Counted from the stretch's first letter, positions 1-41,310 are shown. The stretch is 64,000 nucleotides of DNA from Candidatus Latescibacterota bacterium (GCA_965200315.1 OZ241362.1:2496001-2560000), one strand, 5' to 3'. Notes: generated by a model from the sequence alone, not told the origin. Translations and numbers: made by a program.

Positions 1-1347
1 GACGACCAAGGCCCTTGGGCCGCCGGCTGTTACGGCAACGCGGAAATCCGCACTCCAGCAATCGACCGCATTGCCCATACGGGTATTCGCTTTGACAATT
101 TCTTCGTCGCAACCCCGGTCTGCTCGCCCAGCCGCGCGAGCTTTTTGACCGGGCGGATTCCCTCGCAGCACGGAGTACACGACTGGATCAGAGAGGGCAA
201 CGTCGGCGCGTCCGCAGCCGCCTATCTCGCCGGCGAGGTGGCTTATACCGACATCCTCGCTGCAAACGGCTGGGTCTGCGGGCTAAGCGGCAAGTGGCAC
301 CTCGGGCACAGCCAACTCGCACAGCACGGCTTTTCACATTGGTACGTGCATCAGCAGGGCGGCGGGCCGTACAACGACGCACCCATGATCCGCGACGGCG
401 AACTGATCACCGAGCCGGGCTACGTGACCACGGCAATCACCAACGACGCGCTGGCGTTTATCGATCGGCATGCCGACGGCGACGCGCCCTTTTACCTAGG
501 CGTCCACTACACCGCGCCGCACAGCCCGTGGACGGGCCACCCGCAGGAAATCGTCGATTCCTACGACAACTGCGCGTTCGACTCCTGTCCGCAGGAAGCG
601 ATCCACCCTTGGGCGGTGGGCCACGCGCTGAGTGAGAACTGCTTGGGCAACCGCGAAATGCTCAAGGGCTATTTCGCGGCGGTGACGGCCATGGACCGCG
701 ACATCGGGCGGATTATCGACAAGCTAGAAGAAAGGGGGCTACGCGAGGCCACGCTGATAGTCTTCGCCAGCGACAATGGCTTTAGCTGCGGCCATCACGG
801 TTTCTGGGGCAAGGGCAACGGCACCTATCCGCCGAACATGTACGAGAATTCGATCAAGGTGCCCTTCGTCGTCAGCCACCCCAGCCGCATACCTGCGGGG
901 CGCGTCCAAGCGGGCATGGTCAGTGCCTACGACTTTATGCCGACCTTGCTCGATTATCTAGAACTACCACTACCCGAGGGCCCCAATTTGCCCGGACAAA
1001 GCGCGCTGCCGCTGTTGTTGGGAGCAGACGACACCGGCCGGCAGGAAGTAGTCATCTACGATGAGTACGGGGCGACGCGGATGATGCGAACCAAGGAGTG
1101 GAAGTACGTCCACCGCTATCCAGATGGGCCGCACGAACTCTACGACCTAGCCAACGACCCGGACGAGCGCACCAATCTGGCGGACGATCCCAGCCAAGCC
1201 AAGCGAATCGGCGAGCTAAAGAGGCGACTGGAAGCGTGGTACAAAAGCTACGCAGTGCCCCAACGCGACGGCCGCCACTTCGCGGTGACTGGCAAGGGGC
1301 AACTCAGGCCGGTCGGCACCGGGACCCAACCTTTCGCGCCGGAGTAG
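1..1347 (+). CDS. Sulfatase (arylsulfatase/choline-sulfatase family), 5'-truncated by window edge
   Basis: Frame is open from base 1 (DDQGPW...). Contains the formylglycine motif CSPSR at ~121-135, plus GKWHLG, SDNG and HELYDL..DP.E..NLA. Confidence 0.93.
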   Translation, partial: DDQGPWAAGCYGNAEIRTPAIDRIAHTGIRFDNFFVATPVCSPSRASFLTGRIPSQHGVHDWIREGNVGASAAAYLAGEVAYTDILAANGWVCGLSGKWHLGHSQLAQHGFSHWYVHQQGGGPYNDAPMIRDGELITEPGYVTTAITNDALAFIDRHADGDAPFYLGVHYTAPHSPWTGHPQEIVDSYDNCAFDSCPQEAIHPWAVGHALSENCLGNREMLKGYFAAVTAMDRDIGRIIDKLEERGLREATLIVFASDNGFSCGHHGFWGKGNGTYPPNMYENSIKVPFVVSHPSRIPAGRVQAGMVSAYDFMPTLLDYLELPLPEGPNLPGQSALPLLLGADDTGRQEVVIYDEYGATRMMRTKEWKYVHRYPDGPHELYDLANDPDERTNLADDPSQAKRIGELKRRLEAWYKSYAVPQRDGRHFAVTGKGQLRPVGTGTQPFAPE

Positions 1348-1348
1348 C

Positions 1349-2194
1349 TTACTCCGGCAACACACTCCGCGCCGGCACAAACCCCAACTCCGCTGCAATC
1401 CGCGCAATATCATACACCGGATCCCGCTCGTGCCCCGCCCGCTCGTAATGCGCCATGTCGATCTTCTCAGCATCTGCCCCATACCAAATCCGCATCAACT
1501 CCGGCACCGTACAGGCCACACAGGCCTGCGTCCCCACTGCGTTCAAAATCCGCACCCCCGCCTTGTGAGCGCTCTCCGCCGCCAGCCGGAAGCACCGCAC
1601 CGCATCGCTCAAATACATACACGAAATCGCCCCCATCCCCCACGGCCCCACCGGCCCCGGCTGCCGTCGCTCAGCTACTCTGTCCTCGGGCCAAATCGAA
1701 GCCAGCCTAATATTGATGAAGTCTAAGTCCTCCCGTTGCCGCGCTAGATAGCGGGTCGTCTCCTCCATCATGTATTTGGAAAAACCGTAGCCGTCGCGGT
1801 CGAGACACGGATGCTCGTCCGACATCGGCAGTTCGAGCGGCCGAAAACGCACCGACTGCATCCCGACCGCCGCGATTGACGAGGCCAATGCAAATTTGCT
1901 GCAACCCCGGTCAATCAGATAGCGCAACAAGCCGTAGGTCCCCATGACATTGACCCGCATGAGATCCGCTTCGGCACCCGCGCCCGTCACCGCCCCCAGA
2001 TGGACCAGCGCATCGAAGTCCCACCGGTCCAACCGGTGCAGATCCTCCAGCCGCGTAAAATCGCCAACCACCACCGCCGCCCCCACGACCTCCGTCGGCT
2101 GGCGCGACAGACAAACCACCTCGTGCTCCGCCGCCATATCCGCGGCCAGCGCCCGACCGATAAAACCACTGGTTCCCGTAATCAATACGCGCAT
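1349..2194 (-). CDS. NAD-dependent epimerase/dehydratase (extended SDR)
   Basis: Starts MRVLITGTSGFIG, with YGFSK catalytic motif. ATG at 2194 follows a GGAGG RBS located inside the duplicated segment. Confidence 0.9.
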   Translation of the reverse strand: MRVLITGTSGFIGRALAADMAAEHEVVCLSRQPTEVVGAAVVVGDFTRLEDLHRLDRWDFDALVHLGAVTGAGAEADLMRVNVMGTYGLLRYLIDRGCSKFALASSIAAVGMQSVRFRPLELPMSDEHPCLDRDGYGFSKYMMEETTRYLARQREDLDFINIRLASIWPEDRVAERRQPGPVGPWGMGAISCMYLSDAVRCFRLAAESAHKAGVRILNAVGTQACVACTVPELMRIWYGADAEKIDMAHYERAGHERDPVYDIARIAAELGFVPARSVLPE

Positions 2195-2506
2195 CTCAAC
2201 CTCCCGGCGGCGCGATCCGTTCCAGTACCAAACCTTCGGGGCGCACAAAATCCTTGTAGCGAACCAAAATTTCCGCCCCATTAATGCTGCGCACAAAACC
2301 CGCCCGCGCCTCCAGCTTCTTCACCTCGATCTCGACCCGATTGGCCCCGCGCCTTATCTCCTCGGCTGCCAAGCGAAAGCGAAACCAGTGCGCCGAAAAA
2401 CCCAACGGGGCTTGCACCGCCATATTTCCAGCGAGCTGTAGGGGAATGGTCAATGCGCGCTCGTCGCTGATTTCGGCTTCAGCGCGGGACAGAACCCGGC
2501 CGTTAA
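2191..2506. repeat. 316-bp direct repeat, copy 1 (orphan duplicate of the 3' end of CDS 4354..5925)
   Basis: Matches 4349..4664 at a constant offset of 2158. I see only two differences: 2412 T vs 4570 C, and 2484 G vs 4642 C. Confidence 0.95.
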
Positions 2507-2515
2507 GTTACGGCC

Positions 2516-3838
2516 TTATGCGGCTTTTGCTTCCGGGTCTTGCAATTCTTCTCTATCGAGATCGCCGTTATCAACAAGGCGTGCGGTAACGGCAAGTGGC
2601 GATACATTGAAGTGCTCGGCGGCATCTTGCTGTTTTTCGTCCGAAAAATCATCGTTCAAAAAAGCCAGCAAAGAATGAATTGGGCAAAGGAGCTCACCAG
2701 CAAAAGCACGCTGCATTTTTTGCCGGTACGTGTACGTGCCGGTCGCCGGATGCAGTAATTCGTTGGGGTCGCCCAAAAGACGATCTACGAGAAGGCGGGC
2801 AATCGCAAATCGACGCCCCTGTTCCCAAGCGGACCTCAGTACAACGCGACCTGTTTTCCGGTTCGCGTCGTCGAGTGCAAAGGCGAGACGCCCCGTTGAG
2901 TCTTGCCTAGATAGAACCTGTTCACTGATGCCGCATAATTCGGCCAGCCTAGTGTTTGGGATAGCATCATCGCCCAAATGTTCCTGCCGACGCAGTTGCT
3001 GCGCAGATCCTACTCCCACCTGCCAAGCGGGTACTTGACTGCTATCGACGTGCTGTGATGTCGAGACGCTTTGCACACCATCGCCAGGGCGCGTGTCAAA
3101 CCCAAACTTTCGCGCCACGTCATGCAACCCCAGCGCGGCTTGGTGATCGTCAGCTACAACTTCCGATATGGCGTCTAGCCCAAGGATGTTGCCCTCCGCG
3201 ATCAGTCGCTCAACCAACTCAGGTTCGGCTTCGTCCGGGTCGAAGCCCAAATAGGCTTCAAATCTTCTATAGAGAGAAATAGCCGGATCCTTCCGTTCGG
3301 AACTTAACTCACTCCATATCGTGTGCAGGTCCGTATTCATATAGGTGCATTCTGCAAGGCGGGTTAGGACACGCCCCACAAAATCATCAATGCCGTCCTC
3401 GAATGTCCAAGCCGGAATGGTCGCTATCCCACCCATCGTATAATGAAGCTGTTCCGTCTGCACTACTTCGGACGGCCTTGCGTTAAAAACAATACGAACG
3501 CCATCCGACTTGATGGTGATGTTCGGCCAGAGCCATCCGCCTCCAATACAGGCTAGATCATGCGCTTCGCTCCAATCCGCGTCTCGGCGGCGCTGTCGCG
3601 CGGGCTCCCAGCGCAGGCGCCACCAATGCCACGCTAACCATTCGGCCAATCTGTATGCCGATAGGTTGGCACCGTTTCGTGGGGTATTCGTCTCGCTGTC
3701 AATGGCTTGGGTAAGGCAGGTCTGACCAACGTGGATGCCGAGTTCTCCCAAAGTCGCTTCGTCCTCAGCCGGCTGGAGCGCGGACTTGGAAACTCGATCG
3801 GCCTCACGTAGCCATCGCGATCTAATCCGTAACGTCAT
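2516..3838 (-). CDS. ImmA/IrrE (peptidase M78)-like protein with degenerate metal-binding motif and uncharacterised N-terminal domain
   Basis: C-terminal GRRFAIARLLVD sits where RxRFTxAHELGH is expected, followed by QRAFAGELLCP and AAEHFNVSPLAV, typical of the ImmA/IrrE fold. ATG at 3838 overlaps the upstream stop (ATGA). Confidence 0.7.
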   Translation of the reverse strand: MTLRIRSRWLREADRVSKSALQPAEDEATLGELGIHVGQTCLTQAIDSETNTPRNGANLSAYRLAEWLAWHWWRLRWEPARQRRRDADWSEAHDLACIGGGWLWPNITIKSDGVRIVFNARPSEVVQTEQLHYTMGGIATIPAWTFEDGIDDFVGRVLTRLAECTYMNTDLHTIWSELSSERKDPAISLYRRFEAYLGFDPDEAEPELVERLIAEGNILGLDAISEVVADDHQAALGLHDVARKFGFDTRPGDGVQSVSTSQHVDSSQVPAWQVGVGSAQQLRRQEHLGDDAIPNTRLAELCGISEQVLSRQDSTGRLAFALDDANRKTGRVVLRSAWEQGRRFAIARLLVDRLLGDPNELLHPATGTYTYRQKMQRAFAGELLCPIHSLLAFLNDDFSDEKQQDAAEHFNVSPLAVTARLVDNGDLDREELQDPEAKAA

Positions 3839-4272
3839 TGGCCGCGTCTTTCCCATTCGCTCCGCACGAACTCGGCAAATCTATCGCCATGCTTCATAGG
3901 ATATCCGTGATATTCACCACGCTCGCGATTAGAAAGTTGAGCCTCATATACTATGCCTTCGGCGGAGACTGCCCACACATTCTGGGGCCAGTCTCCACGT
4001 TGTTGTTCACTGACCATTCCACGACGGATGCCCGATTTGAGCAACTCGGCAGCCTCTCGACAGCAGGTGATTCCAGCTCCATCGCAGATAGTCTTGTCGG
4101 GACGCGGAACTGGTCTGGATAAACCCCAAGCCGCAGGGTTGGATTTATGGTACGGACTGGCCTTGTATCTGGCGTCTTGAGCCATCCGTCCGAGTGTATC
4201 TTTGCTGATCGTACCCAGCAGCGCCACCGTGCTTTTCCTTTTCGTCTTGCTGCGTTTCTGGGGATGCTTCAT
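3835..4272 (-). CDS. Small basic hypothetical protein, possible nuclease-type toxin
   Basis: 145 aa from ATG 4272, with motifs YKASPYHK, WPQNVWAV and VYEAQLSN...YHGYP. Translationally coupled to the downstream gene. Function is inferred. Confidence 0.6.
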   Translation of the reverse strand: MKHPQKRSKTKRKSTVALLGTISKDTLGRMAQDARYKASPYHKSNPAAWGLSRPVPRPDKTICDGAGITCCREAAELLKSGIRRGMVSEQQRGDWPQNVWAVSAEGIVYEAQLSNRERGEYHGYPMKHGDRFAEFVRSEWERRGQ

Positions 4273-4348
4273 AATTCGACCGCGAAAGGGCGGCAAGTAC
4301 CAATAGGGACGGTAAAAGCCGTTTTTTCAAAATAACACCCTTGACGCT

Positions 4349-4664
4349 GCATCTCAACCTCCCGGCGGCGCGATCCGTTCCAGTACCAAACCTTCGGGGC
4401 GCACAAAATCCTTGTAGCGAACCAAAATTTCCGCCCCATTAATGCTGCGCACAAAACCCGCCCGCGCCTCCAGCTTCTTCACCTCGATCTCGACCCGATT
4501 GGCCCCGCGCCTTATCTCCTCGGCTGCCAAGCGAAAGCGAAACCAGTGCGCCGAAAAACCCAACGGGGCCTGCACCGCCATATTTCCAGCGAGCTGTAGG
4601 GGAATGGTCAATGCGCGCTCGTCGCTGATTTCGGCTTCAGCCCGGGACAGAACCCGGCCGTTAA
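4349..4664. repeat. 316-bp direct repeat, copy 2 (in-frame 3' end of CDS 4354..5925 plus following ATG)
   Basis: Near-identical to 2191..2506. Confidence 0.95.
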
Positions 4665-5925
4665 AGCGCATTTCGATCTCGTCCTCAATGCAAAAAAAGG
4701 CAAAGCGCAGCGTCAGGATGGCCGGGCGCATCTCGCCGTCGTGCCGGCCACTTTCCACATCGTCGGCCACCCAAATGTCGAGCGCGACCGTCTCGCCCTC
4801 CAAGAGCGGTTCCGGCACTTGGCGCTCCGGCGTAGAAGTATCTTCCCCGATGACCCCTTCGCGCGGCGGCAGCAGGTAGCGCTTGTCGCGCCGGGCGTGT
4901 GCCTGCGGATAGGCCACCTCGCGCAGGATCTGGTACTCGCGCTCGGCCAAGGGCCAAGGCATATAGCCCAAGTACATCCCGGCGAAGCCCTGCCAAGCGA
5001 GGGTCTGGCTGAGGGCGCGGTACATCTCAATGCTCGGCAACCCCACCCGCTCGTCGTAGATTCGGCGCGGCGGCCGATAATACGCCGCGGCACCCGCATC
5101 CTCGGCCACCTCGGCCAGCCACGGTGCCTGAATACTTGGGTCAACCAGCACATGCTCGTCCTGGCCGACGATCCAGTCGAGGCTACCGGCCCGCAGCCAA
5201 GCCGCCACGTCCAGTCCCACCGCGAGATTGTCTGCCTCTTTTAGATGCACCCGCGCCATAAGCGGAATTTTGCGGCCCTGCCGAGCGCCGATTTCCTCGG
5301 CCAATGCCCGCACCCTAGCCACAAACTCGGTCATCAGCGGCGCGTTTTCCTGTATCTCATCCTTTTTGAAATAGAAGTTGTCAAAGCAAAAATCCAGTTC
5401 CAGCCCATCGGGCCGGTAGCCTTCTAACACTTCGCCGATGATGGCTAGCTTGTCCTCCTGTACGGCCTCTTGCGCGTAGTCGTAACACCACTCCGCCCGG
5501 CCCGCGTCGCCAATGCATACCCCAGCCCCGCGCTGCTCCTTGAGCCGCCCTGAACGCTCGTGTCCCGGGCGGGCAGAATCTTGGAGCTTGAGGCTGGGGA
5601 AAACCTGCATCCCCGTCTCTCGACCGCGCTCAATGACGGCTCGCAACTGGTCGGTGCCCAGCTCTTTGGCCACCTCGACCATCCGCATGATCCGCCAGTC
5701 GATGTAGTTTTCCCACACCTCCTTGCCCTGCCCTACCACGCGGCCGATCTCGCTCTGGTGAAAGAAGACGTCGCTATAACCTAATCCCAAAACCAGCAGA
5801 TCTACGCCCGTGCCCAATACCTCATCTACCGGCCAGTTCAGAAGGTGGCGGCTGGCCGGTGGTTCAAGCCGCTTGGCGTGAAAGTGGTGCGCGTCGTTGT
5901 AGTGAATCAAACGAGGTCGGTCCAT
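4354..5925 (-). CDS. Hypothetical protein, probable glycoside-hydrolase-like TIM barrel with C-terminal beta domain
   Basis: 523-aa ORF with RBS (AGGAG). Motifs LIHYND, DYAQEAV and DGLELDF resemble DUF187/GHL-type barrels. Confidence 0.6.
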   Translation of the reverse strand: MDRPRLIHYNDAHHFHAKRLEPPASRHLLNWPVDEVLGTGVDLLVLGLGYSDVFFHQSEIGRVVGQGKEVWENYIDWRIMRMVEVAKELGTDQLRAVIERGRETGMQVFPSLKLQDSARPGHERSGRLKEQRGAGVCIGDAGRAEWCYDYAQEAVQEDKLAIIGEVLEGYRPDGLELDFCFDNFYFKKDEIQENAPLMTEFVARVRALAEEIGARQGRKIPLMARVHLKEADNLAVGLDVAAWLRAGSLDWIVGQDEHVLVDPSIQAPWLAEVAEDAGAAAYYRPPRRIYDERVGLPSIEMYRALSQTLAWQGFAGMYLGYMPWPLAEREYQILREVAYPQAHARRDKRYLLPPREGVIGEDTSTPERQVPEPLLEGETVALDIWVADDVESGRHDGEMRPAILTLRFAFFCIEDEIEMRFNGRVLSRAEAEISDERALTIPLQLAGNMAVQAPLGFSAHWFRFRLAAEEIRRGANRVEIEVKKLEARAGFVRSINGAEILVRYKDFVRPEGLVLERIAPPGG

Positions 5926-5977
5926 GGCTAAGCTCCTAATTTCTACGGGCGCATCGCCTCATAGTGGGTTCGCCGAC

Positions 5978-7093
5978 TTAGTCCTTCTTTTGGGCCAAGA
6001 CTTGGGCCATGTACGGCTGATGGCCTAAGATCGGTTTTTTGTTGTACATCCGCGAGGGATTGGGAATGAGGCGCAGACTGCGGTCGGCCAGCGGCAGTGC
6101 CACCGGCACACATCCCCGCCGGTGCGACTCGCGCACCGCAATGGCCATTTCGAGGACCTTGACGCCGTTCTCGCCGCTGCCCGGCGGGTCTTCACCCCGC
6201 TCCAGTGCGTCGATAATGGCCTTGCAACTAGCCTTGTTGCGGTCCCCAGGCCAGCGCCAGCCCTCGGCGTCGTACCCGCGCTCTCCGCCGTAGATCGGCC
6301 CTTCCGGCAAGACGCCCTCGATTTTTTTTAACTTCTCCCAACTCGCCCCATCGCCTTCGACGTAGCGGTACAAGCCTGCGAGATTGTCGTCTGCGTAGAA
6401 GACTCCGCCCTCACAGGCCACCTCGTAGCCGCGGCCCCGCGCATCCTTGTCGCGGTAGATAAACGCCTCAATTCCATTGGTGAAGCGCACGTATCCAGCC
6501 CCGCCTTGGTCGTGTTCGCTCAGTGGATCGTCGCTGACCCAGCCCGACACCCACGCCACCTCGGCACAGCCAGCAAAGTGGCGCATCAGCGTAAAGCGCT
6601 GGCAGCCGCCACCCGACATCTCCGTGCCCGACCCGCCGAGCAAGGTGATGCGCTTTACCGCTCCTAATTCGCCCGCACCAATGAACTTTAGGGCCTCTTG
6701 ATAGGCCGGCAAGTTGACGTCCAAGTCGCCTGCGCCAAAGGGGATGCGCCGGTGCTTGCACTCGGCGACCATGCGGTCGGCTTCTGAGAGTGAGGCCGCA
6801 ATCGGCTTTTCGCAGAGGATGGCCTGAACCCCGGCTTGAGCGCAGGCGATGACGACCTCCGGGTTGGCACTGACCGGCAGAATCGGCGCGGCAATGTCGA
6901 GCACCTCTTTTTTTAGCATCTGGCGATAATCGGCATAGCCGGGTATGCCCGTGCGCTTTTGAAACAACGCCAAATTCTCTGGGTCTCCATCGGCCACGGC
7001 CACTAACTCCGTGCGTTCGTCGAGCATATAGGCGCGTGCGTGCTGCGTACCTTTGCGCCCAGCCCCGATCAACCCCACGCGATATTTAGCCAT
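5978..7093 (-). CDS. Gfo/Idh/MocA family oxidoreductase
   Basis: MAKYRVGLIGAG and ILCEKPIA. GGAGG RBS precedes ATG 7093. Confidence 0.9.
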   Translation of the reverse strand: MAKYRVGLIGAGRKGTQHARAYMLDERTELVAVADGDPENLALFQKRTGIPGYADYRQMLKKEVLDIAAPILPVSANPEVVIACAQAGVQAILCEKPIAASLSEADRMVAECKHRRIPFGAGDLDVNLPAYQEALKFIGAGELGAVKRITLLGGSGTEMSGGGCQRFTLMRHFAGCAEVAWVSGWVSDDPLSEHDQGGAGYVRFTNGIEAFIYRDKDARGRGYEVACEGGVFYADDNLAGLYRYVEGDGASWEKLKKIEGVLPEGPIYGGERGYDAEGWRWPGDRNKASCKAIIDALERGEDPPGSGENGVKVLEMAIAVRESHRRGCVPVALPLADRSLRLIPNPSRMYNKKPILGHQPYMAQVLAQKKD

Positions 7094-7125
7094 CGTCGGA
7101 ATCCTCCTTAGATATAGTCCATTTC

Positions 7126-8289
7126 TTAGCCGCTCCGCCCTGTCCGCGCCCACAGCAACCCCAGCGTCACCGCCACTGCCACCAACAAGGGCACCGCCAA
7201 GTGATTGAGCCTATTCCAACCCAACATACCCTCCAAAGGGGCCGCCCCGAAACTGGTCAACACCATCAGGCCAAAGACTAGAAAGTCATTGCACGATTGT
7301 ACCCGCGCCTTTTCCTCGGGCCGGTGCGTCATCGCCAACAGCGACGTTGACCCAACGAAAAGAAAATTCCACCCCACTCCCAATAGTGCCAACCCAGCCG
7401 TGTAGTGATAGAGCCCAACACCACTCAAATTGACCGCAATGGAGCACCCAAGCAACGCAATGCCGGCGAACATGATCTGGTGCTCGCCCCAACGCACGAT
7501 TAGGTGTCCAGTAAAAAAAGACGGCACGTACATGCCCAACACATGCCACTGAATAACCCAAGCCGTATCGGCAAAGGAATGCAAATGCCGCTTCATCGCC
7601 AGCGGCGTGGCATTCATCAACAGTGACATCAGCCCCCAAGCAGCCACCGCCCCGATCACTGCCAGTGCGAAATCCGCCTGCCGCGCAATCTCCCGGAGCG
7701 AACGCCCCCCCGCCCGCTGCTCTTCGGCGCTAGGCGCGGGAAAGGAGACAAAGCAGAGCACCGGCAAAACTAGCGCATGAACGGCGGCAATCCCTAAAAA
7801 AGAGCCAGCGAATAGATAGTCGGGAAACCACTCCCGCGACCACGCCGCCAGATTGGAGCCCGATATTGCGGCAATGACGCCCCCGGCCATCACCAGCGAA
7901 ATAGCGCGACTGCGAAAATCCTCGGCGACTACCTCGCCAGCGGCAAAGCGATAATAGGTGGCAAAGCCATTGACCGCACCAATGCCCAACCCACCCAAAC
8001 AAAGCAGCGCAAAATTGCCTTGGTACACGGCCAGACACCCCACCGCACCTCCGAGGATGCCCAACGCCGCACCCAAAGCAAAACCGAGCTTGCGGCCGCG
8101 CCGCTGCATTAGCTGCGCCGCGGGCACCGTCATTATCATCGTGGCCACCGGCGCCAGTGCCAACGGCAGGGTCGCCAGCGTGGGATTGGGCGTCAACCGC
8201 TGGCCGATGAGCGCCATGCTCGAAAGCATGACGAGACTGGCGGTGCGCGAGAGGGCCTCGCATAAAAAGAGCAGCGAAAGATTTTGCAC
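7126..8289 (-). CDS. MFS transporter
   Basis: About 12 hydrophobic segments, with motifs RRGRKLGF, YRFAAGE, HVLGMYVPSFFTG and LGVGWNF. Confidence 0.9.
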   Translation of the reverse strand: MQNLSLLFLCEALSRTASLVMLSSMALIGQRLTPNPTLATLPLALAPVATMIMTVPAAQLMQRRGRKLGFALGAALGILGGAVGCLAVYQGNFALLCLGGLGIGAVNGFATYYRFAAGEVVAEDFRSRAISLVMAGGVIAAISGSNLAAWSREWFPDYLFAGSFLGIAAVHALVLPVLCFVSFPAPSAEEQRAGGRSLREIARQADFALAVIGAVAAWGLMSLLMNATPLAMKRHLHSFADTAWVIQWHVLGMYVPSFFTGHLIVRWGEHQIMFAGIALLGCSIAVNLSGVGLYHYTAGLALLGVGWNFLFVGSTSLLAMTHRPEEKARVQSCNDFLVFGLMVLTSFGAAPLEGMLGWNRLNHLAVPLLVAVAVTLGLLWARTGRSG

Positions 8290-8319
8290 GCTAGTCAGGC
8301 CAGGCGGCCCCGTCGGTGA

Positions 8320-9378
8320 TTATTTTCTGCGCCGCGTCTCCACCGCTGCGGCCAATTCCTCCAACACCTCCACCGTATCCTCCCACCCAATACAGGCATC
8401 GGTAATGCTCTGCCCATAAACCAACTCCGTGCCTGCCTGCTGTTTCTGGTTGCCCTCGATCAGGTGGCTTTCCAGCATCATCCCGAAAACATCCTGCGTC
8501 CCTCCCGCCACCTGCGCGGCAACCGCGTGTGCAACCGCCGGCTGGCGCTTGTGATCTTTGGCGCTGTTGCCGTGGCTGCAATCGATCATCACGCGATGTG
8601 GCAAGCCCGCCTCTTTGAGCTGGGCCGCGGCCGCGTCGACGCTGGCGTGATCGCAATTGGGGCCATCGCTGCCGCCGCGCAAAATCAGATGACAACTCGC
8701 ATTGCCCGAAGTCCCAACAATCGCCGCAATGCCTTGCTTGGTCACCGAAAGAAAGTGATGCGGATGTCGGGCGGCATCGATGGCGTCGCGGGCAATCTGC
8801 ACATTGCCCGCGGTCCCATTCTTGAAGCCAACGGGCATCGACAGCCCAGAAGCCAATTCGCGGTGAACCTGACTTTCCGTAGTGCGAGCACCAATGGCAC
8901 CCCAAGCAATCAAGTCGGCGATAAATTGCGGCGTGATGGTATCGAGGAATTCGGAACCGGCCGGCAAGCCCATATCCCCCAACTGCACCAGCAGGCCGCG
9001 GGCGGCACGCAAGCCGCTATTGATATTGAAGCTGTCGTCCAAATGCGGGTCGTTGATCAACCCCTTCCAGCCAACGGTCGTGCGCGGCTTCTCGAAATAC
9101 ACGCGCATCACCACGTACAACTCGTCGCTTAGGGCCGCAGCCTTTTCCTTGAGCCGTTCTGCGTATTCGAGCGCGGCTTGGGGGTCGTGAATCGAACATG
9201 GGCCGACCACTACCACCAGCCGGTCGTCCTCTCCGGCCAGTATAGCGTCTAATGCGCGCCGGGCCGCAGCCACGGTATGGGAGGCCGCTTCCGAAACGGG
9301 CAATTCTTCCATCAAAATCGCCGGAGGGATCAAGGGTTTAAGTTGGTTGATGCGTAGATCGTCAGTTGATTCAAACAA
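8320..9378 (-). CDS. aroG: 3-deoxy-D-arabino-heptulosonate 7-phosphate synthase, class I-alpha
   Basis: GPCSIHD, RVYFEKPRTTVGWKGLINDP, AIGARTTESQVHRELASG, DCSHGNS and YGQSITDACIGW. Which feedback isoform (aroF/G/H) it is cannot be determined. Confidence 0.95.
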   Translation of the reverse strand: MFESTDDLRINQLKPLIPPAILMEELPVSEAASHTVAAARRALDAILAGEDDRLVVVVGPCSIHDPQAALEYAERLKEKAAALSDELYVVMRVYFEKPRTTVGWKGLINDPHLDDSFNINSGLRAARGLLVQLGDMGLPAGSEFLDTITPQFIADLIAWGAIGARTTESQVHRELASGLSMPVGFKNGTAGNVQIARDAIDAARHPHHFLSVTKQGIAAIVGTSGNASCHLILRGGSDGPNCDHASVDAAAAQLKEAGLPHRVMIDCSHGNSAKDHKRQPAVAHAVAAQVAGGTQDVFGMMLESHLIEGNQKQQAGTELVYGQSITDACIGWEDTVEVLEELAAAVETRRRK

Positions 9379-9584: not shown

Positions 9585-10808
9585 CTAACCACCCGGCACC
9601 CAACCCAAAGCGGTAAAATTCTTGCCGGTGAGGCTCCGCATAAAGCGCGCCCGCTCGCGCGCTTCCTCTAGCTCCTCGCGCAGGTCTTCCGGCCGATGTG
9701 CCCGGCCCCGACGCACGGTCAATACCGGCTCGATTTTGCGATTGCCCTGCTCGCGCCGGCCGCGCACGTCTTGGAACTCGAACGTCCCCTCCAGCACCTC
9801 AAACGCCGCCAGATCCGCCACCGTCCCCTCCCGCAGAGTACCTAACTCCTCGCCGCGCCCGATGGCGTCAGCCGCCGCGGCCGTGCTCTGTTGCACGACG
9901 CGCTCCAGCGGCACTCCCAAGTTGAGCAACTTCGACGCGGTCTCCGGCATACTCTCGATCGGGCTGTCCCAGCTATGCGCGTGCAAATCCGTGCTAATCA
10001 CATCGGCGATAAAACCGTCAGCCAGTGCCTGTATTGCGATCCCGTAGTCAAAACTGCCGCCGCCGTGCCCCACGTCGAAGAGCACCCCCCGCTCCCGCGC
10101 TTCCCACACCTGCGGCACCACCGTCCCTGAGTCGTCTACCACGCAGTCTCCCGTGCCTTGATAACAATGGGTCACCACATCGCTGGGCCGCAGCAGGGCG
10201 AGCACCTCCACAATCGGCACCCCTCGGGCGATGTGTACCATCACCGGCACCCCCGCCCACTCGGCCGCCTGCACCGCCAACTGCAAGGGTTTGGTCCCAT
10301 TCTCGCCGACTTGGAACCCGCCCTGCCGCACCTTGACGCCGACGCAGTGCTCCTGCCAATGATGGGCCACAAACGCCGTGCGCTCTGGATCGCCGTACTG
10401 CAAATCGACCATCTCCCCCACCGGCCCACAGGTCAAACCAATCGCCGAAATATGCACGTACGCCAAAACTTGGGTCCGCGCCGGCTCGATCACGTAATCG
10501 ACAAATCCCTCAAAGTTGGCCCACCCCGCGCTGCCAGCATCGACGATTGTCGTCACGCCCGTGGCCAAGCACAGCGCATCGCCGCGGATCCCCCAAGTCG
10601 TGCAGCCGGCGTAGAGGTGCGCGTGGATATCGATCCATCCCGGCGTCAGGAGCTTGCCGGACAGGTCGATCATCTCCGCCGCTGGGGCCGTTATCTCCTC
10701 GGCCACTGCGGCGATCTGCTCCCCGACGATCCCCACGTCGCGGATCCCGTCCACGCCCTGCGCCGGGTCCATCACCCGTGCGCCCTTTAACAACAGATCG
10801 TAGGCCAT
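9585..10808 (-). CDS. Amidohydrolase/deacetylase family metallohydrolase (dihydroorotase-like)
   Basis: MAYDLLLKGARVMDP, PGWIDIHAH, GVTTIVDAGSAG, FDVGHGGGSF and ISTDLH. Confidence 0.9.
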   Translation of the reverse strand: MAYDLLLKGARVMDPAQGVDGIRDVGIVGEQIAAVAEEITAPAAEMIDLSGKLLTPGWIDIHAHLYAGCTTWGIRGDALCLATGVTTIVDAGSAGWANFEGFVDYVIEPARTQVLAYVHISAIGLTCGPVGEMVDLQYGDPERTAFVAHHWQEHCVGVKVRQGGFQVGENGTKPLQLAVQAAEWAGVPVMVHIARGVPIVEVLALLRPSDVVTHCYQGTGDCVVDDSGTVVPQVWEARERGVLFDVGHGGGSFDYGIAIQALADGFIADVISTDLHAHSWDSPIESMPETASKLLNLGVPLERVVQQSTAAAADAIGRGEELGTLREGTVADLAAFEVLEGTFEFQDVRGRREQGNRKIEPVLTVRRGRAHRPEDLREELEEARERARFMRSLTGKNFTALGWVPGG

Positions 10809-33459: not shown

Positions 33460-33492
33460 CCAAATGGGACCTCGATTTGAGGTCCCATTTGG
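33460..33492. terminator. Hairpin between convergent genes
   Basis: CCAAATGGGACCTC-GATTT-GAGGTCCCATTTGG. Confidence 0.75.
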
Positions 33493-33514
33493 TTAACGCG
33501 CTGTGCAGCGGCTG

Positions 33515-36500
33515 CTACCTGAGCAGCAGCATCTTCTTGACCTTGAGAAATTCTCCGCCCACCTGCAAGCGGTACAAATACATCCCCGAAGACAAGCTGT
33601 GGCCGCTGTCATCGGTTGCGTCCCACTCCACTGCGTAGCGACCCGCGCTCTGATGCTCGGCCACCAGCGTCCGCACCGGCTGACCCATTATGTTATAGAC
33701 AGTCAACTCCACGTCTGCCGCCTGCGGCAACGCATACTGGATCGTCGTCGTCGGATTGAACGGGTTCGGGAAGTTGTCCGCCAACGCGAATGCAGTCGGC
33801 CGCGGTTGAATTGCCGCCTTCGCCGCTCTTGGGTCGCTTATCGCGATCTCTACCGAGTCCCCCTCCAGCCCGTCAATCGTACCGATCAGCCTAATGATCT
33901 CGTCGCCTTCCTCCAAGTTGTCGGCTCTTGGATCAACGTGAAAGTTCACCCTCCCTGTTATCGAGCCGGCCATAATCTCAATTTTAGGAGTAAATAACGC
34001 GGCGTAGTCCAAATCGCGCGTGGCGGTGGAAGCGTTATCTATAGACAAACGCACGGTCGCGGCCTCTGCCAACGCCTTGCCGTCCAACGTGGCGGTCACC
34101 GCAATAGTGGTCAAATCGTCATTTTCACTCAACGTGCTCGGGTCCGCCGACAGCGCGATGGACGTACTCGGCGTTTCGTCGTCTCGGATCGCGATGTTGG
34201 TCACTATAGTCTGCCCGGTCGATACGAGCGTGGCCTGCACCCCTATCGCCTCCAAGCCCTCTTCATTATTGTCGTTGATCGGCGTGAGGACCAGCACCGC
34301 CGTCCCCTCGGTAGCGCCGGCCGGAATGGTGATAAGCACTTCGAGATTTACTGTGTAGTCCACATCGCGCGTCGCCTCCGTCCCCTCACTTGGGGCCACA
34401 ATAGCGAGCTGCACGCTCTCGTCTGCCGCCGCGGCGGCCTCCAAGGTAAACGTCAGCGAGACTTCCATCTCCGCAGCGTCCTCGCGGATCATCGCAGGTG
34501 CTGCCATCAGCCCAGCGGCCACAACCATAGGAACCTCCGCAGCGGGATTGACTTCAATGGTGAAGACCAGCGCTGCGCTTTCGCCCGAATCAATGTCGAC
34601 CGCCGTGTACGTAACTTCGACCGCACCGGCGGTGGCTTGCGTAGGCGTACCCGAAAGCGTCCGCGTGGCCGAATTAAACCACAAACCCGCTGGCAGAGCC
34701 GAGACGCTATACGCCGGGTGACAGTCCCTATCCGTAACTTCCGGCAGCACCAAATCGACAATCGCCGTGCCCACAGTGTAGGCCCGGGCGGCAATCGCAG
34801 CGCCCGCAGCAAAGGACAGCACTATCCCTTCCTCAGCTCTTACAGTAATAGCAAAGGACAGCACTGCCGCTTCGCCATCTCTATCGGTCGCCGTGTACGT
34901 AATTTCGACCGCACCGGCGGTGGCTTGCGCAGGCGTACCCGAAAGCGTCCGCGTGGCCGCGTCAAATGACAAGCCCGCTGGCAGAGCCGAGACCTGGTAC
35001 GTCAGATCGCCATCGCCGGTAGCCTCCGGCAGCACCAAACTGGTAATCGCCGTGCCCACAGTGTAGGCCCGGGCGGCAATCGCAGCACCCGCAGCAAAGG
35101 AAGGCACAGTGCCCTCGCTGCCGTCTCGCAGCGTTACATCTACCGTGCCGACCGTCAAATTGACCGCTTCGCCATCGGCATATTGGGCGGAGACTTGCCG
35201 GTTGGCATACGGCACCGTCAGCCTAATTTTCTCTTCGCCTTCCTCAGCCCCGTCGTCAATCGGGATGATGGTGATCGTCGTCGTCCCCGACACCGCGCCG
35301 GCCGGAATCGTCAGAGGACGCAGGACGGCCGTGTAGTCTACATCGCGCGTCGCCTCGGCCACATCGACGACCTCGTTATCCGCGTTTGTATTTTTGGGAT
35401 CGGGGTCAATGATCAGCAGCACGATCACGTCTTGGTCAAACACCCTCCCGTCCAATGTGCCGGTCACCGCAACATCGGTCCTACCAGCCCCCTCGCTTAG
35501 CCTAGTCGGAGTCGCCGTCAGCGAGATGCTCGTGCTGTTCGCGTCGTCGTCGGCGATGGCTATCGTTTTAATCGCCGATACGTCGCCGACTGCGATCTGT
35601 ATGTATATCAAACCGCGCGCAACCTCTGCGCTGTCGTTGTAGGGAGTAATGGTGAAGGTCGTCGTTCCCTCAGCCGCACCGGCTGGGATGATAAACGGCG
35701 CAAAAGACAGCGTGTAATGCACATCGCGCGTCGGCGCGCTCGTCACCGCACCCCCCGACGGCAACCTCTCACCTACTGACAACACACGCAGCCGCACCGT
35801 CTCGTCCTTAGCCAAGGCATTTGTCAATGAGACTTTCAACTCGATGGTCGTCTCACCGGCGTCCTCGCGCACACTCTCTTGACTAAGCGTAATGGCATCG
35901 GCCGTGGCAGCGACCCCTTTCGTCATTTTGAGATCCAACGGGCGAATCGTTAGCCCATTTGCAATCTGTATCCCCTCATTATTCGCATCACTATCGGGCG
36001 TAGCCACCCGAATCGTGCCCGGCAGCCGGTTTCTAGGAGTGATGATAATCGTCGCCGTCCCCGACACTTTATTGCGCGGAATCGTCAGCGGCGCCAGCGT
36101 CACCGTGTAGTCCAAATCGCGCTGCGCCTCGCGATTGTCCTTGGTCGCATCCGCATCGTCGATAGTGCCGTCGCCATTGGTATCGGCGTTGGGATTGGCC
36201 CCCAAGTCGGGATGATCGCCAATGGTCAAGACGAAACTTGTCGCCTGTCTTAGTACCTTGCCATTTAGGGTCGCCGTCACGGCGATCTCGGTCGCACCAT
36301 CGAACCTATTTAGCTCGACAATATCGGCCGACAGAGCGATGTTTTGGCTGTCCTTGTCGTCGTCAATAAGCGTGATCGTCGCCGACTCGACCGTCTTAAT
36401 GCCAGCATTGCCGCGGATCTCGACAGGAAGATCTGTGTCAACGACATCATTGTTAATCGGGGTGAGGGTGATCGTAGCCGTGGCACTTTTCTCGCCAGCC

Positions 36501-36781: not shown

Positions 36782-36830
36782 TACTTGATCTCCCTGAGAA
36801 GAGTGGTTGACTATTGGTCTGTAATATAAA

Positions 36831-36866
36831 AAATGGGGTCTCAAACCGCAGTTTGAGACCCCATTT
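36831..36866 (-). terminator. Intrinsic terminator after second large secreted gene
   Basis: AAATGGGGTCTCAAAC-CGCA-GTTTGAGACCCCATTT, with a T-run on the minus strand. Confidence 0.8.
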
Positions 36867-36890
36867 CGTTAACGGGCTATGTAGTGATTG

Positions 36891-41207: not shown

Positions 41208-41254
41208 TACTCTATCTCCCCAAGTTAAGAGCAATTACTGGTGGTTTTAGAATC

Positions 41255-41289
41255 GTGGGATAGGGCTTCGCGTTGAAGCCCTATCCCAC
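41255..41289. terminator. Hairpin after third large secreted gene
   Basis: GTGGGATAGGGCTTC-GCGTT-GAAGCCCTATCCCAC. Confidence 0.7.
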
Positions 41290-41310
41290 CAACTCGCTGT
41301 GCAGTGGGTG

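Follow-up and report, generated by a model that had tools for sequence, protein, structure and literature searches.

Introduction

Insertion with long target duplication was reportedly described for restriction-modification units by Nobusato and colleagues in 2000 (Gene 259:99). The same kind of insertion is treated in the available text of Furuta, Abe and Kobayashi (2010; PMC2853133), where restriction-modification units were collected as inserts of <20 kb with a direct duplication of >30 bp, no linked mobility gene and repeats that are not high-copy. That text proposes a life cycle of insertion, amplification through the repeats and release, with breakage by the unit's own enzyme as a common cause.

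Here we analyze a locus of a Candidatus Latescibacterota bacterium with a comparable architecture. It lies in a 64-kb stretch of DNA (64,000 nucleotides, called the window), and positions are counted from the first nucleotide of that stretch. As in the restriction-modification cases of PMC2853133, as far as that text is available, the unit is a few kb long, carries neither integrase nor transposase, is spread across phyla and is associated with direct duplications of target DNA, tens to hundreds of bp in length, that vary from locus to locus. Within the window, the insert measures 1842 bp and the duplication 316 bp, a scan of the cassette and of 16 ORFs around it found no mobility gene, and the repeat is present twice only in 64 kb.

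Results

A two-gene insert is bracketed by a duplicated host gene end

The features of the locus are as follows.

1349..2194, minus strand: NAD-dependent epimerase/SDR, 281 aa, intact, the downstream host gene (Pfam Epimerase, E 5.6e-22)
2191..2506, minus strand: direct repeat copy A, a fragment of the gene A 3′ end (alignment and ORF calls)
2485..2515, minus strand: cassette tail, made up of 9 nt past the large-gene stop and ~22 nt from the start of copy A; this ~30-nt stretch also lies behind the stop of related cassettes at other sites, as a gene A stub
2516..3838, minus strand: large cassette gene, 440 aa, putative antitoxin/sensor; its ATG at 3838 overlaps the small-gene stop as ATGA
3835..4272, minus strand: small cassette gene, 145 aa, putative effector/toxin (ORF and homologue alignment)
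4273..4348, minus strand: leader, 76 bp, from copy B to the start codon of the small ORF (alignment with sister locus L015)
4349..4664, minus strand: direct repeat copy B, the functional copy, in which gene A's 3′ end and stop are joined by the ribosome-binding site and ATGC of the next gene
4354..5925, minus strand: host gene A, 523 aa, an intact ORF with no Pfam or NCBIfam family

Pairwise alignment of 2191-2506 with 4349-4664 gave two direct repeats of 316 bp each with exactly two mismatches. A repeat search of the window reported 2191-2490 and 4349-4648 as a 99% identical pair, and blastn of the window against itself returned 2187-2506 and 4344-4664 (99.07% over 321 columns, one gap, E 2e-164), an E-value that excludes a chance origin of the pair. 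The same blastn run found no third copy in the 64 kb. The 1842 bp between the repeats (2507-4348) hold two ORFs only, 4272->3835 (145 aa) and 3838->2516 (440 aa), on the minus strand like all genes around the insert. The insert's GC content is ~51-59% per 300-bp segment, mostly 53-57%, and that of the flanks is 58-67%. Neither cassette protein matched a recombinase family in the family, PADLOC and PHROGs searches, a scan of 16 ORFs located at 1-20 kb in the window gave no integrase or transposase domain, and none of the 25 longest of 54 inverted-repeat pairs joined the two insert ends. We conclude that the insert is a foreign, recombinase-free two-gene unit bracketed by a long duplication of a host 3′ end. 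The preliminary description had reported such direct repeats around two genes without a recombinase, and alignment, self-blastn and the family searches confirm it.

Transposons, IS elements and integron cassettes are likewise discrete small units found at many sites, and integron cassettes share with this unit that they hold little more than ORFs and no recombinase of their own. Unlike IS elements, the cassette has no transposase and no terminal inverted repeats, and its target duplications are 10-100 times longer; unlike integron cassettes, it has no attC-like conserved end, does not lie in an array, and has no integron integrase among the scanned ORFs. An IS element or DNA transposon was rejected on the absence of a transposase and of inverted-repeat insert ends and on the measured 316-bp duplication, which exceeds a transposon target duplication by far; the preliminary description had pointed this out for IS elements.

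Copy B comprises the last ~103 codons of gene A and its TGA stop, followed by GGAGG and the ATGC that opens the downstream gene. In copy A, the gene A fragment is preceded by an in-frame stop codon and contains an 85-aa ORF (2453->2196); this copy supplies the epimerase (2194->1349) with the native ribosome-binding site and ATG, the same as in copy B. By virtue of the 316-bp duplication, neither gene A nor the epimerase's translation start is lost. The ORFs and the sequence thus agree with the earlier reading of the repeat as a gene A 3′ end, stop and epimerase start that leaves both host genes intact, and the two differences between the copies (CGG/CGC and CAG/CAA) proved synonymous in the host frame, as had been claimed. 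The gene A family counts 2014 representatives at E<=1e-3, and the C-terminal motif at the repeat start is conserved in 20/20 aligned homologues. Domain search identified a sulfatase, an SDR, a GFO/IDH/MocA oxidoreductase and an MFS transporter as neighbours; from these families, a catabolic operon is a plausible host setting, and plausible only.

The 76-bp leader is common to the window and sister locus L015 only, not to cassettes elsewhere, and has no similarity to the DNA upstream of the cassettes in loci L001 and L002. A sigma-70-like match spans the junction, with its -35 in host DNA and its -10 in the leader, at a score not above that of shuffles.

The sister genome carries the same insertion

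The only related genome compared carries the cassette as well. In this sister assembly (loci L015 and L013) the left junction and leader are identical to those of the window; identity is 88-90% in the flanks and 93.7% in the cassette. Gene A and its ortholog in L015 share 91% protein identity, and the epimerase is 91% identical to its ortholog in L013. The right repeat of the sister is eroded to ~20 + 23 bp, and its left junction shows a 4-bp microhomology (GCGT) with the host sequence after the repeat.

A near-identical repeat of 316 bp is a classic site of assembler error, and two strain variants of the gene A-epimerase junction could have been stitched around an unrelated contig. However, in the sister assembly, an independent one, gene A likewise runs into this leader and cassette, and the cassette tail into the epimerase; the large protein of the window is listed on a 5.36-Mb contig in the protein collection; and the architecture recurs in other genomes, isolates included. 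We consider an assembly artefact extremely improbable.

Within the repeat stretch, the gene A ortholog of the sister differs at 14/51 four-fold sites, whereas the two copies in the window differ at 2/316 positions. Either the donor allele was therefore nearly identical to that of the host, or the copies have been homogenised since. This bears on the proposal that a circle of the cassette and one gene A segment, excised for example from a relative, integrated by a single RecA-mediated crossover, the repeats being mosaics of donor and recipient. Single-crossover integration of a circle with a 3′-terminal gene fragment gives exactly the order fragment-insert-fragment, and recombination between the repeats can remove such a Campbell-type insert again. 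The architecture of the locus is exactly this end product, as obtained by insertion-duplication in the laboratory, where a 3′-terminal fragment likewise leaves the upstream gene intact. That both repeat differences are synonymous fits two functional alleles, an argument that is weak with two sites. At four-fold sites, the cassette is less diverged from the sister (19/170) than five flanking genes (195/957, p = 0.004), which suggests exchange after the host split, but not significantly less than the adjacent epimerase (21/132, p = 0.24). In locus L053 the minus-strand host ORFs to either side of the cassette overlap a 599-bp duplication and can be read as one host gene split by an internal fragment.

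A circle, however, must hold the target fragment beforehand, so that the Campbell model cannot explain first arrivals at many different targets. A donor as diverged as the sister is excluded by 2/316 vs. 14/51, and nine short cassette contigs bore no circle signature. In contrast to the laboratory case, the event here is a natural one, and no vector backbone, origin or circle was seen. Campbell-type integration of the window's cassette is plausible but unproven, and we rate it as possible, although clearly the less likely course; the arrival of a relative's allele on a circle, as put forward in the preliminary description, was not substantiated by these comparisons.

Related cassettes share two ORFs in unrelated contexts

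The cassette belongs to a large family without annotation: a relative is encoded in 526 of 600 pattern-matching stretches in species-representative genomes, and the best 80 of these 526 loci were studied in detail. By record titles, the 80 loci belong to Latescibacterota, Gemmatimonadota, Binatia, Acidobacteriota, Chloroflexota, Alpha-, Beta- and Gammaproteobacteria, Myxococcota, Spirochaetia and others. In at least 74 of them, the small gene sits immediately upstream of the large gene, and large genes without a small-gene match were found in four. Other toxin-antitoxin and defence genes are frequent in the neighbourhood of the cassettes.

Across unrelated contexts, DNA homology between related cassettes runs only from about -30..0 of the small-ORF start to about 0..+70 past the large-ORF stop. 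Paired cassettes illustrate this: L006 and L011 are 87% identical over -13..+69, L052 and L065 83% over -27..+11, and L001 and the window 87% over -3..+31. The locus could also be what is left of a larger island with an integrase, the repeats being its att sites; in favour of this, a recombinase lies close to the cassette in a few loci (L022, L016 and L066). Related cassettes in unrelated contexts, however, have only the two ORFs in common and their homology ends at the ORF ends, which argues against a larger integrase-bearing parent. The repeats are host coding sequence, different at each locus. No mobility gene was detected among 14 neighbours scanned in L001, L002 and L040, and the 16 scanned window ORFs (1-20 kb) include no recombinase. 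An island remnant is thus largely refuted, and we give it next to no credence.

Long flanking repeats recur at other loci

Flanking direct repeats were detected by blastn in 14 of the 80 loci. Among the 71 loci with 1-kb flanks, 13 scored above the maximum of 213 mismatched-pair controls, nine of them strongly, and 58 at or below it, that is, with no detectable flanking repeat. Strong repeats were found at 9/71 cassette loci vs. 2/168 control gene pairs in the same loci (Fisher p = 3.9e-4), although this within-locus control is imperfect, with 12/168 pseudo-cassettes above the weak threshold. The strong repeats are locus-specific and 27-600 bp long. Long duplications of host DNA, specific to each locus, thus often accompany homologous cassettes elsewhere, which answers a check set out in the preliminary description.

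The repeats sit in host genes that vary by locus (ilvC, a sugar transferase, a CapD-like gene and a serine recombinase). In Thauera sp. 2A1 (L026) the cassette is accompanied by a 297-bp copy of a host gene 3′ end that ends 1 nt past the stop, a geometry as in the window. The nine strong repeats include weak cases: that of L066 is a simple-sequence tract, that of L022 measures 27 bp in the flank test (106 bp at 75% by blastn), and L076 and L079 represent one event, both counted. Among the 14 blastn loci, L051 resembles a palindromic repeat element. Three of these 14 have a recombinase or transposase no more than ~2.2 kb away (L022, with an adjacent serine recombinase; L016, with a tyrosine integrase 1.4 kb upstream; and L066, with a DDE transposase 1.6 kb downstream); its absence from that distance in the other 11 speaks against an island remnant. 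From the two sister pairs (window/L013 and L076/L079), we infer that repeat-less loci may once have had repeats and later lost them.

The same data bear on the possibility of an autonomous cassette, in which one protein or both (the small one as a nuclease, for instance) would make widely staggered breaks or otherwise catalyze an insertion that leaves 60-800-bp duplications. The mobility unit is exactly two ORFs in many contexts, long flanking repeats are enriched relative to control gene pairs, other mobility genes are nearby in few loci, and breakage by the unit's own enzyme has been proposed for restriction-modification units in the available text of PMC2853133. Yet neither protein has a nuclease, transposase or recombinase family or fold, the cassettes have no conserved terminal sequences or inverted repeats, and the 64-kb window holds a single copy. 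Moreover, unrelated cargo of the defence type is bracketed likewise in the same genome sets (ThsB-TIR with an AAA ATPase and DUF4276 in L003, a methylase-HNH fusion in L072), which indicates a host or general process. An autonomous element is thus very unlikely.

A stub of gene A is carried by cassettes at other sites

Cassettes at other genomic sites carry a gene A stub of 17-35 bp. In L001, L002 and L040, the 21-35 bp directly past the stop align to the repeat start inside gene A (18/21, 25/33 and 24/35 matches, respectively, in local alignments compared with shuffles; the L040 alignment merely equals the best shuffle). The stub encodes the gene A motif conserved in 20/20 homologues, and no gene A homologue was found within 10 kb in these three loci. 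Judged by sequence, the stub is an apparent footprint of past cassette movement.

Such a stub could serve as an anchor: a linear cassette with a 3′ gene A piece from an earlier stay would pair with gene A, and its other end would be joined illegitimately downstream of the gene on the sister chromosome, so that the interval is duplicated. This would amount to homology-facilitated illegitimate recombination that gives a duplication rather than a deletion. The repeat begins exactly where the cassette tail at other sites starts matching gene A, and the GCGT microhomology at the sister left junction is consistent with this route. However, the gene A site as the ancestral home of the cassette clade explains the stub equally well, copy A and the window's own gene A have the same sequence along the stub and thus give no sign of a diverged incoming one, the other repeat-flanked loci were without junction microhomology on inspection, and an anchor of 20-35 bp is short for RecA. 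Homing by such an anchor is in our judgement improbable.

The two cassette proteins are predicted to form a complex

The small protein has 298 homologues, none functionally named, and 17 invariant alignment columns; its conserved motifs include YHGYP and PQNVW. It has no match in Pfam, NCBIfam, PADLOC or PHROGs. Foldseek searches of PDB and BFVD with its AF2 model (pLDDT 80.8) gave nothing at E<=0.001; the best E-values were 0.9 (PDB) and 0.4 (BFVD), with faint RelE/HigB/ParE-like rows at a probability of ~0.1. The small protein is most likely an effector or toxin, a role to which the fold and family searches lent no support.

The large protein has 584 homologues, again none functionally named, and combines a new N-terminal domain of ~250 aa, which fits no known family, with an ImmA/IrrE (M78)-like domain at the C-terminus. 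Pfam Peptidase_M78 scored 16.4 bits, below the gathering cutoff of 22, over profile positions 74-122 of 123 only, and hhalign against a genuine M78 protein aligned the C-terminal block only (probability 26%). The best structural matches cover the C-terminal ~170 residues: CapP, a CBASS-associated protease (7t5t), was the top Foldseek PDB match (E 1e-2, probability 1.00, 171 columns), followed by IrrE/PprI (8sln and 3dti, the latter IrrE with probability 0.80). These are active zinc proteases with HEXXH, whereas HExxH occurs in 1/120 relatives and is absent from the large protein of the window; the equivalent helix reads AR[LVIF][LF]xD in 114/120. A genuine M78 metalloprotease was rejected on the missing HEXXH and the Pfam score below cutoff, though the fold is similar. 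The C-terminus is most likely a catalytically dead ImmA/IrrE-like domain. PADLOC-DB v2 gave no significant match to a known anti-phage defence system for either protein, and only sub-threshold hits for the large one (RmrA, E 0.006; capP, E 0.009). No CBASS genes are adjacent to the cassette.

A model of the two proteins in complex scored 0.71 vs. 0.00 for the best of three controls, a mark reached by 116/157 solved complexes and 2/215 mismatched pairs (own alignments used, counts only rough). At least 91% of contacts are common to the runs, and the partner pLDDT is at least 80. The predicted interface includes 7/17 invariant residues of the small protein and the invariant GGGWLWP loop of the large one. 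The two proteins are thus predicted to bind each other, and in the model the large protein's N-terminal domain most likely lies over the conserved face of the small one.

The module looks like a toxin-antitoxin-like addiction or defence pair. Type II toxin-antitoxin operons with a COG2856 (ImmA/IrrE) partner, as described in the available text of Makarova et al. (2009; PMC2701414), are likewise mobile, overlapping two-gene operons with an ImmA/IrrE-like domain and lie near other toxin-antitoxin or defence genes; a tight complex is predicted for the cassette pair. The cassette differs in that its M78 domain lacks HEXXH, that Pfam detects no Xre helix-turn-helix, that its ~250-aa N-terminal domain matches no known family, and that its small partner matches no known toxin family or fold.

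As a separate observation, the small gene is broken and the large gene kept in sister locus L015, which, like the four loci with a large gene only, is no more than an indirect hint on the toxin and antitoxin roles.

Discussion

We consider it fairly probable that the insert is a copy of a widespread, horizontally mobile two-gene module, a toxin-antitoxin-like pair, that entered by insertion with long target duplication. The cassette would have been joined just past the stop codon of gene A, and 316 bp of sequence native to the host would have been copied beyond its other end; the duplication would have arisen at insertion. The repeats may later serve homologous recombination: gene conversion, excision of a circle of one repeat and the cassette, re-integration by a single crossover, and amplification. 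Homologous recombination between the repeats would homogenise them, and may be why the copies are still 99.4% identical. The redundant copy would later be eroded by deletion, as in sister genomes. RecA-mediated excision or amplification between the repeats may reasonably be inferred by analogy with restriction-modification units, in which it has a precedent (PMC2853133).

Compared with those units, the architecture matches and the cargo class does not: the cassette has no methylase or restriction domain. The stub of a former target, carried by cassettes here, is not described for restriction-modification units in the available text of PMC2853133. The cases in that text rest on empty-site comparisons, whereas among the loci compared here no empty site, with gene A immediately beside the epimerase, turned up.

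Insertion with long target duplication has so far been described for restriction-modification systems, and the cargo here is of another kind. With one protein family at many sites, independent insertions of the same element can be compared. The module would then exemplify a known mode of movement of selfish genes that lack their own recombinase.

A host gene end is duplicated around the two-gene cassette

A repeat search of the window returned direct repeats at 2191-2490 and 4349-4648 with 99% identity. Pairwise alignment of 2191-2506 with 4349-4664 was gap-free, with 2 mismatches in 316 bp, and self-blastn of the whole window gave the match as 2187-2506 and 4344-4664 (99.07% over 321 columns, E 2e-164), with no third copy in the 64 kb. 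The repeats, copy A (2191-2506) and copy B (4349-4664), enclose the 1842-bp cassette, and all genes of this stretch lie on the minus strand in the following order.

Gene order of the cassette stretch (window coordinates)
5925 to 4354, minus, gene A, a host gene of 523 aa
between the gene A repeat copy and the small ORF, minus, 76-bp leader
4272 to 3835, minus, small ORF, 145 aa
3838 to 2516, minus, large ORF, 440 aa; its ATG overlaps the small ORF stop as ATGA (4 bp)
between the large ORF stop and copy A, spacer of nine bases
2506 to 2191, minus, copy A, repeating the final 316 bp of the gene A region
2194 to 1349, minus, epimerase/SDR gene

The repeat ends with the gene A stop, a GGAGG inside the last gene A codons and the ATGC that opens the epimerase gene, which leaves gene A complete and the epimerase with its native start of translation. 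The two differences between the copies, described as synonymous in the preliminary description, are indeed so (CGG/CGC and CAG/CAA in the gene A frame). G+C content, taken per 300-bp window, is about 51-59% in the insert (mostly 53-57%) vs. 58-67% in both flanks.

Within copy A, the C-terminal end of gene A persists as an 85-aa ORF with a TTG start (2196-2453, minus strand), and its translation could hold the epimerase in translational coupling, as at the original junction. A sigma-70-like promoter match crosses the left junction (4329-4357, minus strand), with the -35 TTGAGA in the end of the host repeat and an extended -10 in the leader; the insertion may have created a hybrid promoter there, and the sigma-70 consensus may not be that of the host. 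Matches in the promoter and terminator scan were no better than those of shuffles, and positions 1-9000 gave no Rfam match at E<=0.1. A hairpin at the right junction was discarded as evidence, being weakly conserved, with a compensatory change in 1 of 9 pairs and two pairs broken in 2 of 5 sequences. The repeat cluster at 33-44 kb (33476-43776, minus strand) was also set aside: it consists of three tandem paralogous surface-protein genes (1109, 1447 and 821 aa) unconnected with the cassette. These genes share three ~330-bp repeats of 85-88% identity and many shorter ones, and encode He_PIG and FlgD_ig domains, with a Por_Secre_tail (type IX secretion) sorting domain in two.

Cassette homology is confined to the two genes

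At E<=0.001, the large protein had 584 relatives among 8000 candidates scored and the small protein 298 among 318, none of them carrying a functional name. A one-genome-per-species scan yielded at least 600 pattern matches, and 526 of those listed encode a relative; the best 80 of these 526 confirmed loci (labelled L001 and so on) were analyzed. They come from Latescibacterota, Gemmatimonadota, Binatia, Vicinamibacterales, Bryobacterales, Dehalococcoidia, Caldilineaceae, Alpha-, Beta- and Gammaproteobacteria, Myxococcota, Spirochaetia, Desulfovibrionaceae and Chthonomonadaceae. Under a strict distance criterion the small gene immediately precedes the large one in 71 of the 80 loci, and inspection adds L021, L035 and L055; 2 of the 80 begin inside the large gene at a contig edge, and L060, L064, L067 and L074 gave no small-gene match. 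Orientation showed no clear bias (nearest upstream neighbour co-oriented in 46 loci, divergent in 30). The large protein had no match in a phage collection and eight weak matches on plasmids (25-32%, one annotated ImmA/IrrE), and long flanking repeats were absent from two plasmid loci.

All cassette regions, with 1.5 kb of flank on each side, were compared all against all at the DNA level. Where related cassettes lie in unrelated surroundings, homology runs only from ~30-0 bp before the small ORF to ~0-70 bp past the large ORF stop.

Extent of DNA homology between related cassettes (identity; bp relative to small ORF start and large ORF stop)
L006 and L011, 87%, -13 to +69
L052 and L065, 83%, -27 to +11
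L007 and L058, 82%, -25 to +12
L001 and window, 87%, -3 to +31

The 400 bp upstream in L001 and L002 had no similarity to the leader or repeat of the window. In three independent contexts the homologous stretch opens at the start codon itself and closes shortly after the stop, about the size of a transcript. The preliminary description had named the possibility that the cassette is the remnant of a larger integrase-bearing element; homology that is confined to the two ORFs in unrelated contexts argues against such an origin.

Some cassettes elsewhere carry a short stub of gene A. In L001, L002 and L040 the DNA past the large ORF stop aligns to the window 22-35 bp into copy A. Local alignments of the tails with gene A all fall in the same register (L001 18/21, L002 25/33, L040 24/35 and L013, from a sister assembly, 16/17), with scores of 13-17 vs. 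shuffle maxima of 12-14, L040 tying its shuffles. This stretch of gene A encodes an RFNG-type motif whose asparagine is invariant in 20 aligned homologues (down to ~20% identity); hence the stub sequence is native to gene A. Apart from L015, also of the sister assembly, no examined locus has a gene A homologue within 10 kb of the cassette. On the simplest reading, this cassette clade would earlier have occupied a gene A site with an identical right junction and taken the repeat stub along on moving; alternatively, the stub may have been the homology anchor at cassette entry into gene A.

Long direct repeats bracket related cassettes at other loci

The suggestion that homologous cassettes elsewhere might also be flanked by long host-gene duplications was borne out: in self-blastn of the individual loci, 14 of the 80 had direct repeats on either side of the cassette.

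Direct repeats around cassettes at other loci (length, identity)
L026, 297 bp, 95.6%
L053, 599 bp, 95%
L076, 214 bp, 99%
L079, 90 bp, 99%
L038, 141 bp, 96%
L077, 793 bp, 92%
L056, 64 bp, 97%
L020, 112 bp, 79%
L022, 106 bp, 75%

Insert sizes elsewhere (1849, 1856, 1774, 1916 and 1942 bp) are similar to the 1842 bp of the window. The repeats are locus-specific and lie in host genes, among them a ketol-acid reductoisomerase gene, a sugar transferase gene, a CapD-like polysaccharide gene and the end of a serine recombinase gene. The geometry of the window recurs in L026, from the isolate Thauera sp. 2A1, where the left repeat comprises the final 297 bp of the host gene and stops one base past the host TGA, followed by a 37-nt leader and the small ORF.

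A more sensitive test scored the 71 loci that have 1 kb of flank on each side against 213 mismatched upstream/downstream pairs, which reached a maximum of 28.2 bits. Thirteen of the 71 exceeded this value and 9 were strong (>=46 bits), and the remaining 58 showed nothing above the mismatched-pair controls. The within-locus control consisted of 168 neighbouring gene pairs of comparable span from elsewhere in the same loci; 12 exceeded 28.2 bits and 2 were strong, so that strong repeats occur at 9/71 cassettes vs. 2/168 control pairs (p = 3.9e-4). The count is weakened by L066, whose repeat is a simple-sequence tract; L076 and L079 represent one event counted as two loci, and the L051 repeat unit, with complementary sequence at its start and end, may be a repeat element.

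Further paralogous copies of the duplicated host segment (88-99%) lie nearby in L026 (6810-12152), L077 (8334-16012) and L038 (6045-9323), which places these cassettes inside small tandem gene families with a history beyond a single insertion. In L071 (2663-19637) a 6.7-kb segment with a type III-like restriction-modification pair (methylase and ResIII) is duplicated at 99.5% around the cassette and a PqiA-like gene; this duplication, far larger than those elsewhere and found in a short-read-binned MAG, may be an assembly artefact.

Many homologues, including those of L019 and L021, are on contigs of ~2.0-2.6 kb, near the length of the cassette together with a single repeat copy (2158 bp in the window). 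Assembly may have broken at the flanking repeats, and short contigs are frequent in metagenomes anyway. Terminal overlap, as a sign of a circular form, was absent from 9 short cassette-bearing contigs.

Sister genomes suggest decay and possible recombination of the repeats

L015 and L013 are two scaffolds of one Latescibacterota assembly and are collinear with the window (flanks 88-90% and cassette 93.7% identical), a likeness that would also place the window in this phylum. In L015 the left junction and leader are identical to those of the window, and the small gene lacks ~340 bp (about codons 3-111) at 9881-9905, with the leader and the large gene kept up to the contig end, which falls inside the large gene; this is consistent with the loss of a putative toxin. 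In L013 little of copy A remains: past the cassette tail come only ~20 bp of the repeat start and the final 23 bp of gene A, and after these the epimerase start. L076 and L079 have upstream and downstream host DNA and cassette in common, with right repeats of 214 vs. 90 bp. From these two pairs, window/L013 and L076/L079, we infer that deletion wears down the fragment copy and that many of the loci without repeats go back to older insertions.

At four-fold sites, 195/957 positions (20.4%) differ between the window and its sister over five flanking genes (MFS 41/204, oxidoreductase 32/175, gene A 62/237, epimerase 21/132, sulfatase 39/209). The large cassette gene, at 19/170 (11.2%), is less diverged than these five genes (p = 0.004); it was not distinguishable from the epimerase alone (p = 0.24). 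In the repeat portion of gene A, 14/51 four-fold sites differ from the ortholog vs. 2/316 bases between the two copies in the window. Copies this alike despite a diverged ortholog point to their recent recombination, or to recent regeneration from the window lineage's own allele, and gene conversion, excision with re-integration, or amplification with collapse would be candidate routes. The likeness fits, but does not prove, the idea that the cassette is a reversible plug-in.

The cassette resembles insertions with long target duplication

Neither cassette protein matched a recombinase, transposase or nuclease family in Pfam, NCBIfam, PADLOC or PHROGs, and no terminal inverted repeats were found at the insert ends. 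The 16 ORFs scanned at 1-20 kb of the window included no integrase or transposase; among them are genes for a sulfatase, the SDR, gene A, a GFO/IDH/MocA oxidoreductase, an MFS transporter, DAHP synthase, an amidohydrolase, a 2-hydroxyacid dehydrogenase and a Nudix enzyme. The neighbourhood recombinase count covered subsets of the 507 neighbour ORFs of the 80 loci. A diversity-generating retroelement, with variable and template repeats, was rejected, since a reverse transcriptase is absent and the two differences show no preference for adenine.

The founding paper on insertion with long target duplication is that of Nobusato et al. in 2000; the route, recognized by comparing genomes, has so far been described only for restriction-modification genes. 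Members of this class are repeat-bracketed and recombinase-free. Restriction-modification units of this kind have an insert of <20 kb, a duplication of >30 bp and no other mobile element; the class is defined by genome comparisons, and DNA breakage by the unit has been proposed, along with a life cycle in which the unit inserts, is amplified through its repeats and is then released (PMC2853133). A later review takes up this type of insertion again (PMC3874152). The architecture of the cassette fits this class, whose defining comparison is with an empty site, and its cargo, an uncharacterized two-gene family, differs from the known restriction-modification genes. A listing-level search of the full-text literature found no extension to non-restriction-modification cassettes, a weak negative.

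Other repeat-bracketed inserts were seen in the cassette loci. In L003 (686-3805), 328-bp direct repeats (91%) enclose a 2.5-kb insert with a ThsB-TIR-like gene, an AAA_21/AAA_15 ATPase gene and a gene for a DUF4276 protein, 6 kb from the two-gene cassette of that locus. In L072 (2085-5579), 84-bp direct repeats (88%) enclose 3.3 kb encoding an N6/N4 methylase-HNH fusion and a 425-aa protein, which looks like a restriction-modification-like unit with long target duplication. Such defence-type cargo suggests that the route is general rather than cassette-specific. The transcript-sized unit would suit a self-mobilizing element of a new kind, in which the cassette's own proteins, or an RNA or single-strand intermediate, drive insertion with 60-800-bp target duplications; we regard this as very improbable. 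Were it true, the long target duplication route would have a machinery of its own, open to study in an element of 1.8 kb.

The two proteins are predicted to form a complex

In a structure search with the AF2 model of the large protein (pLDDT 79), the C-terminal ~170 residues matched CapP (7t5t: E 1e-2, probability 1.0) and IrrE/PprI. This agrees with sub-threshold Pfam M78 and PADLOC capP matches and with Atlas clusters named ImmA/IrrE (PF06114 on 16% of members); a PDB sequence profile search gave nothing relevant. HExxH is present in only 1 of 120 large-protein relatives, the equivalent helix reading AR-L-L-x-D in 114, and in hhalign against a genuine M78 protein only the C-terminal FAGELLCP block aligns. 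Because of this M78-like C-terminus, the near absence of HExxH and the restricted alignment, we call the large protein a putative pseudo-protease.

The small protein (model pLDDT 80.8) had no match in Pfam, NCBIfam, PADLOC or PHROGs, a best E of 0.57 in the PDB sequence profile search, nothing at E<=0.001 with Foldseek against PDB and BFVD, and only 'hypothetical' clusters in the ESM Atlas. Nine matches to longer fused forms carried no informative domain; one fused form, which includes an aminotransferase domain, may have been joined to a host gene by read-through.

Complex prediction supports binding of the small and large proteins. The pair scored 0.71 (best of 3 controls, 0.00). Of 157 solved complexes 116 reached this mark, as did 2 of 215 mismatched pairs; these counts are only roughly valid here, our own alignments having been used. 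Runs agreed in at least 91% of contacts, with partner pLDDT of at least 80. The predicted interface sets the N-terminal domain of the large protein, including its invariant GGGWLWP loop, against the most conserved motifs of the small protein, with 7 of the latter's 17 invariant residues. The small gene is lost and the large one kept in L015 and four other loci. Neighbours at several loci are of toxin-antitoxin or defence type (CcdB, Uma2, HigB-like, Schlafen/AlbA_2, ResIII, DruA-like, a type III restriction-modification system and, on a Massilia plasmid, dptH). Taken together, the predicted complex, the 4-bp overlap, the small-gene losses and these neighbours make a putative toxin-antitoxin-like addiction or defence pair the most likely function, one that we hold with about even confidence and doubt.

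Significance

To the known route the cassette adds a very widespread, wholly unannotated two-gene module with the same behaviour at many independent sites, including isolates like Thauera sp. 2A1. The sister-genome pairs offer a view of how a redundant repeat decays, and the carried-over stub would be a record of a former target. The cassette is a compact natural system to learn (i) how recombinase-free selfish or defence cassettes enter new sites without gene breakage; and (ii) whether flanking repeats render them reversible or amplifiable. The protein pair is a candidate for a new family, of toxin-antitoxin or defence type, with a dead ImmA/IrrE domain at its base.
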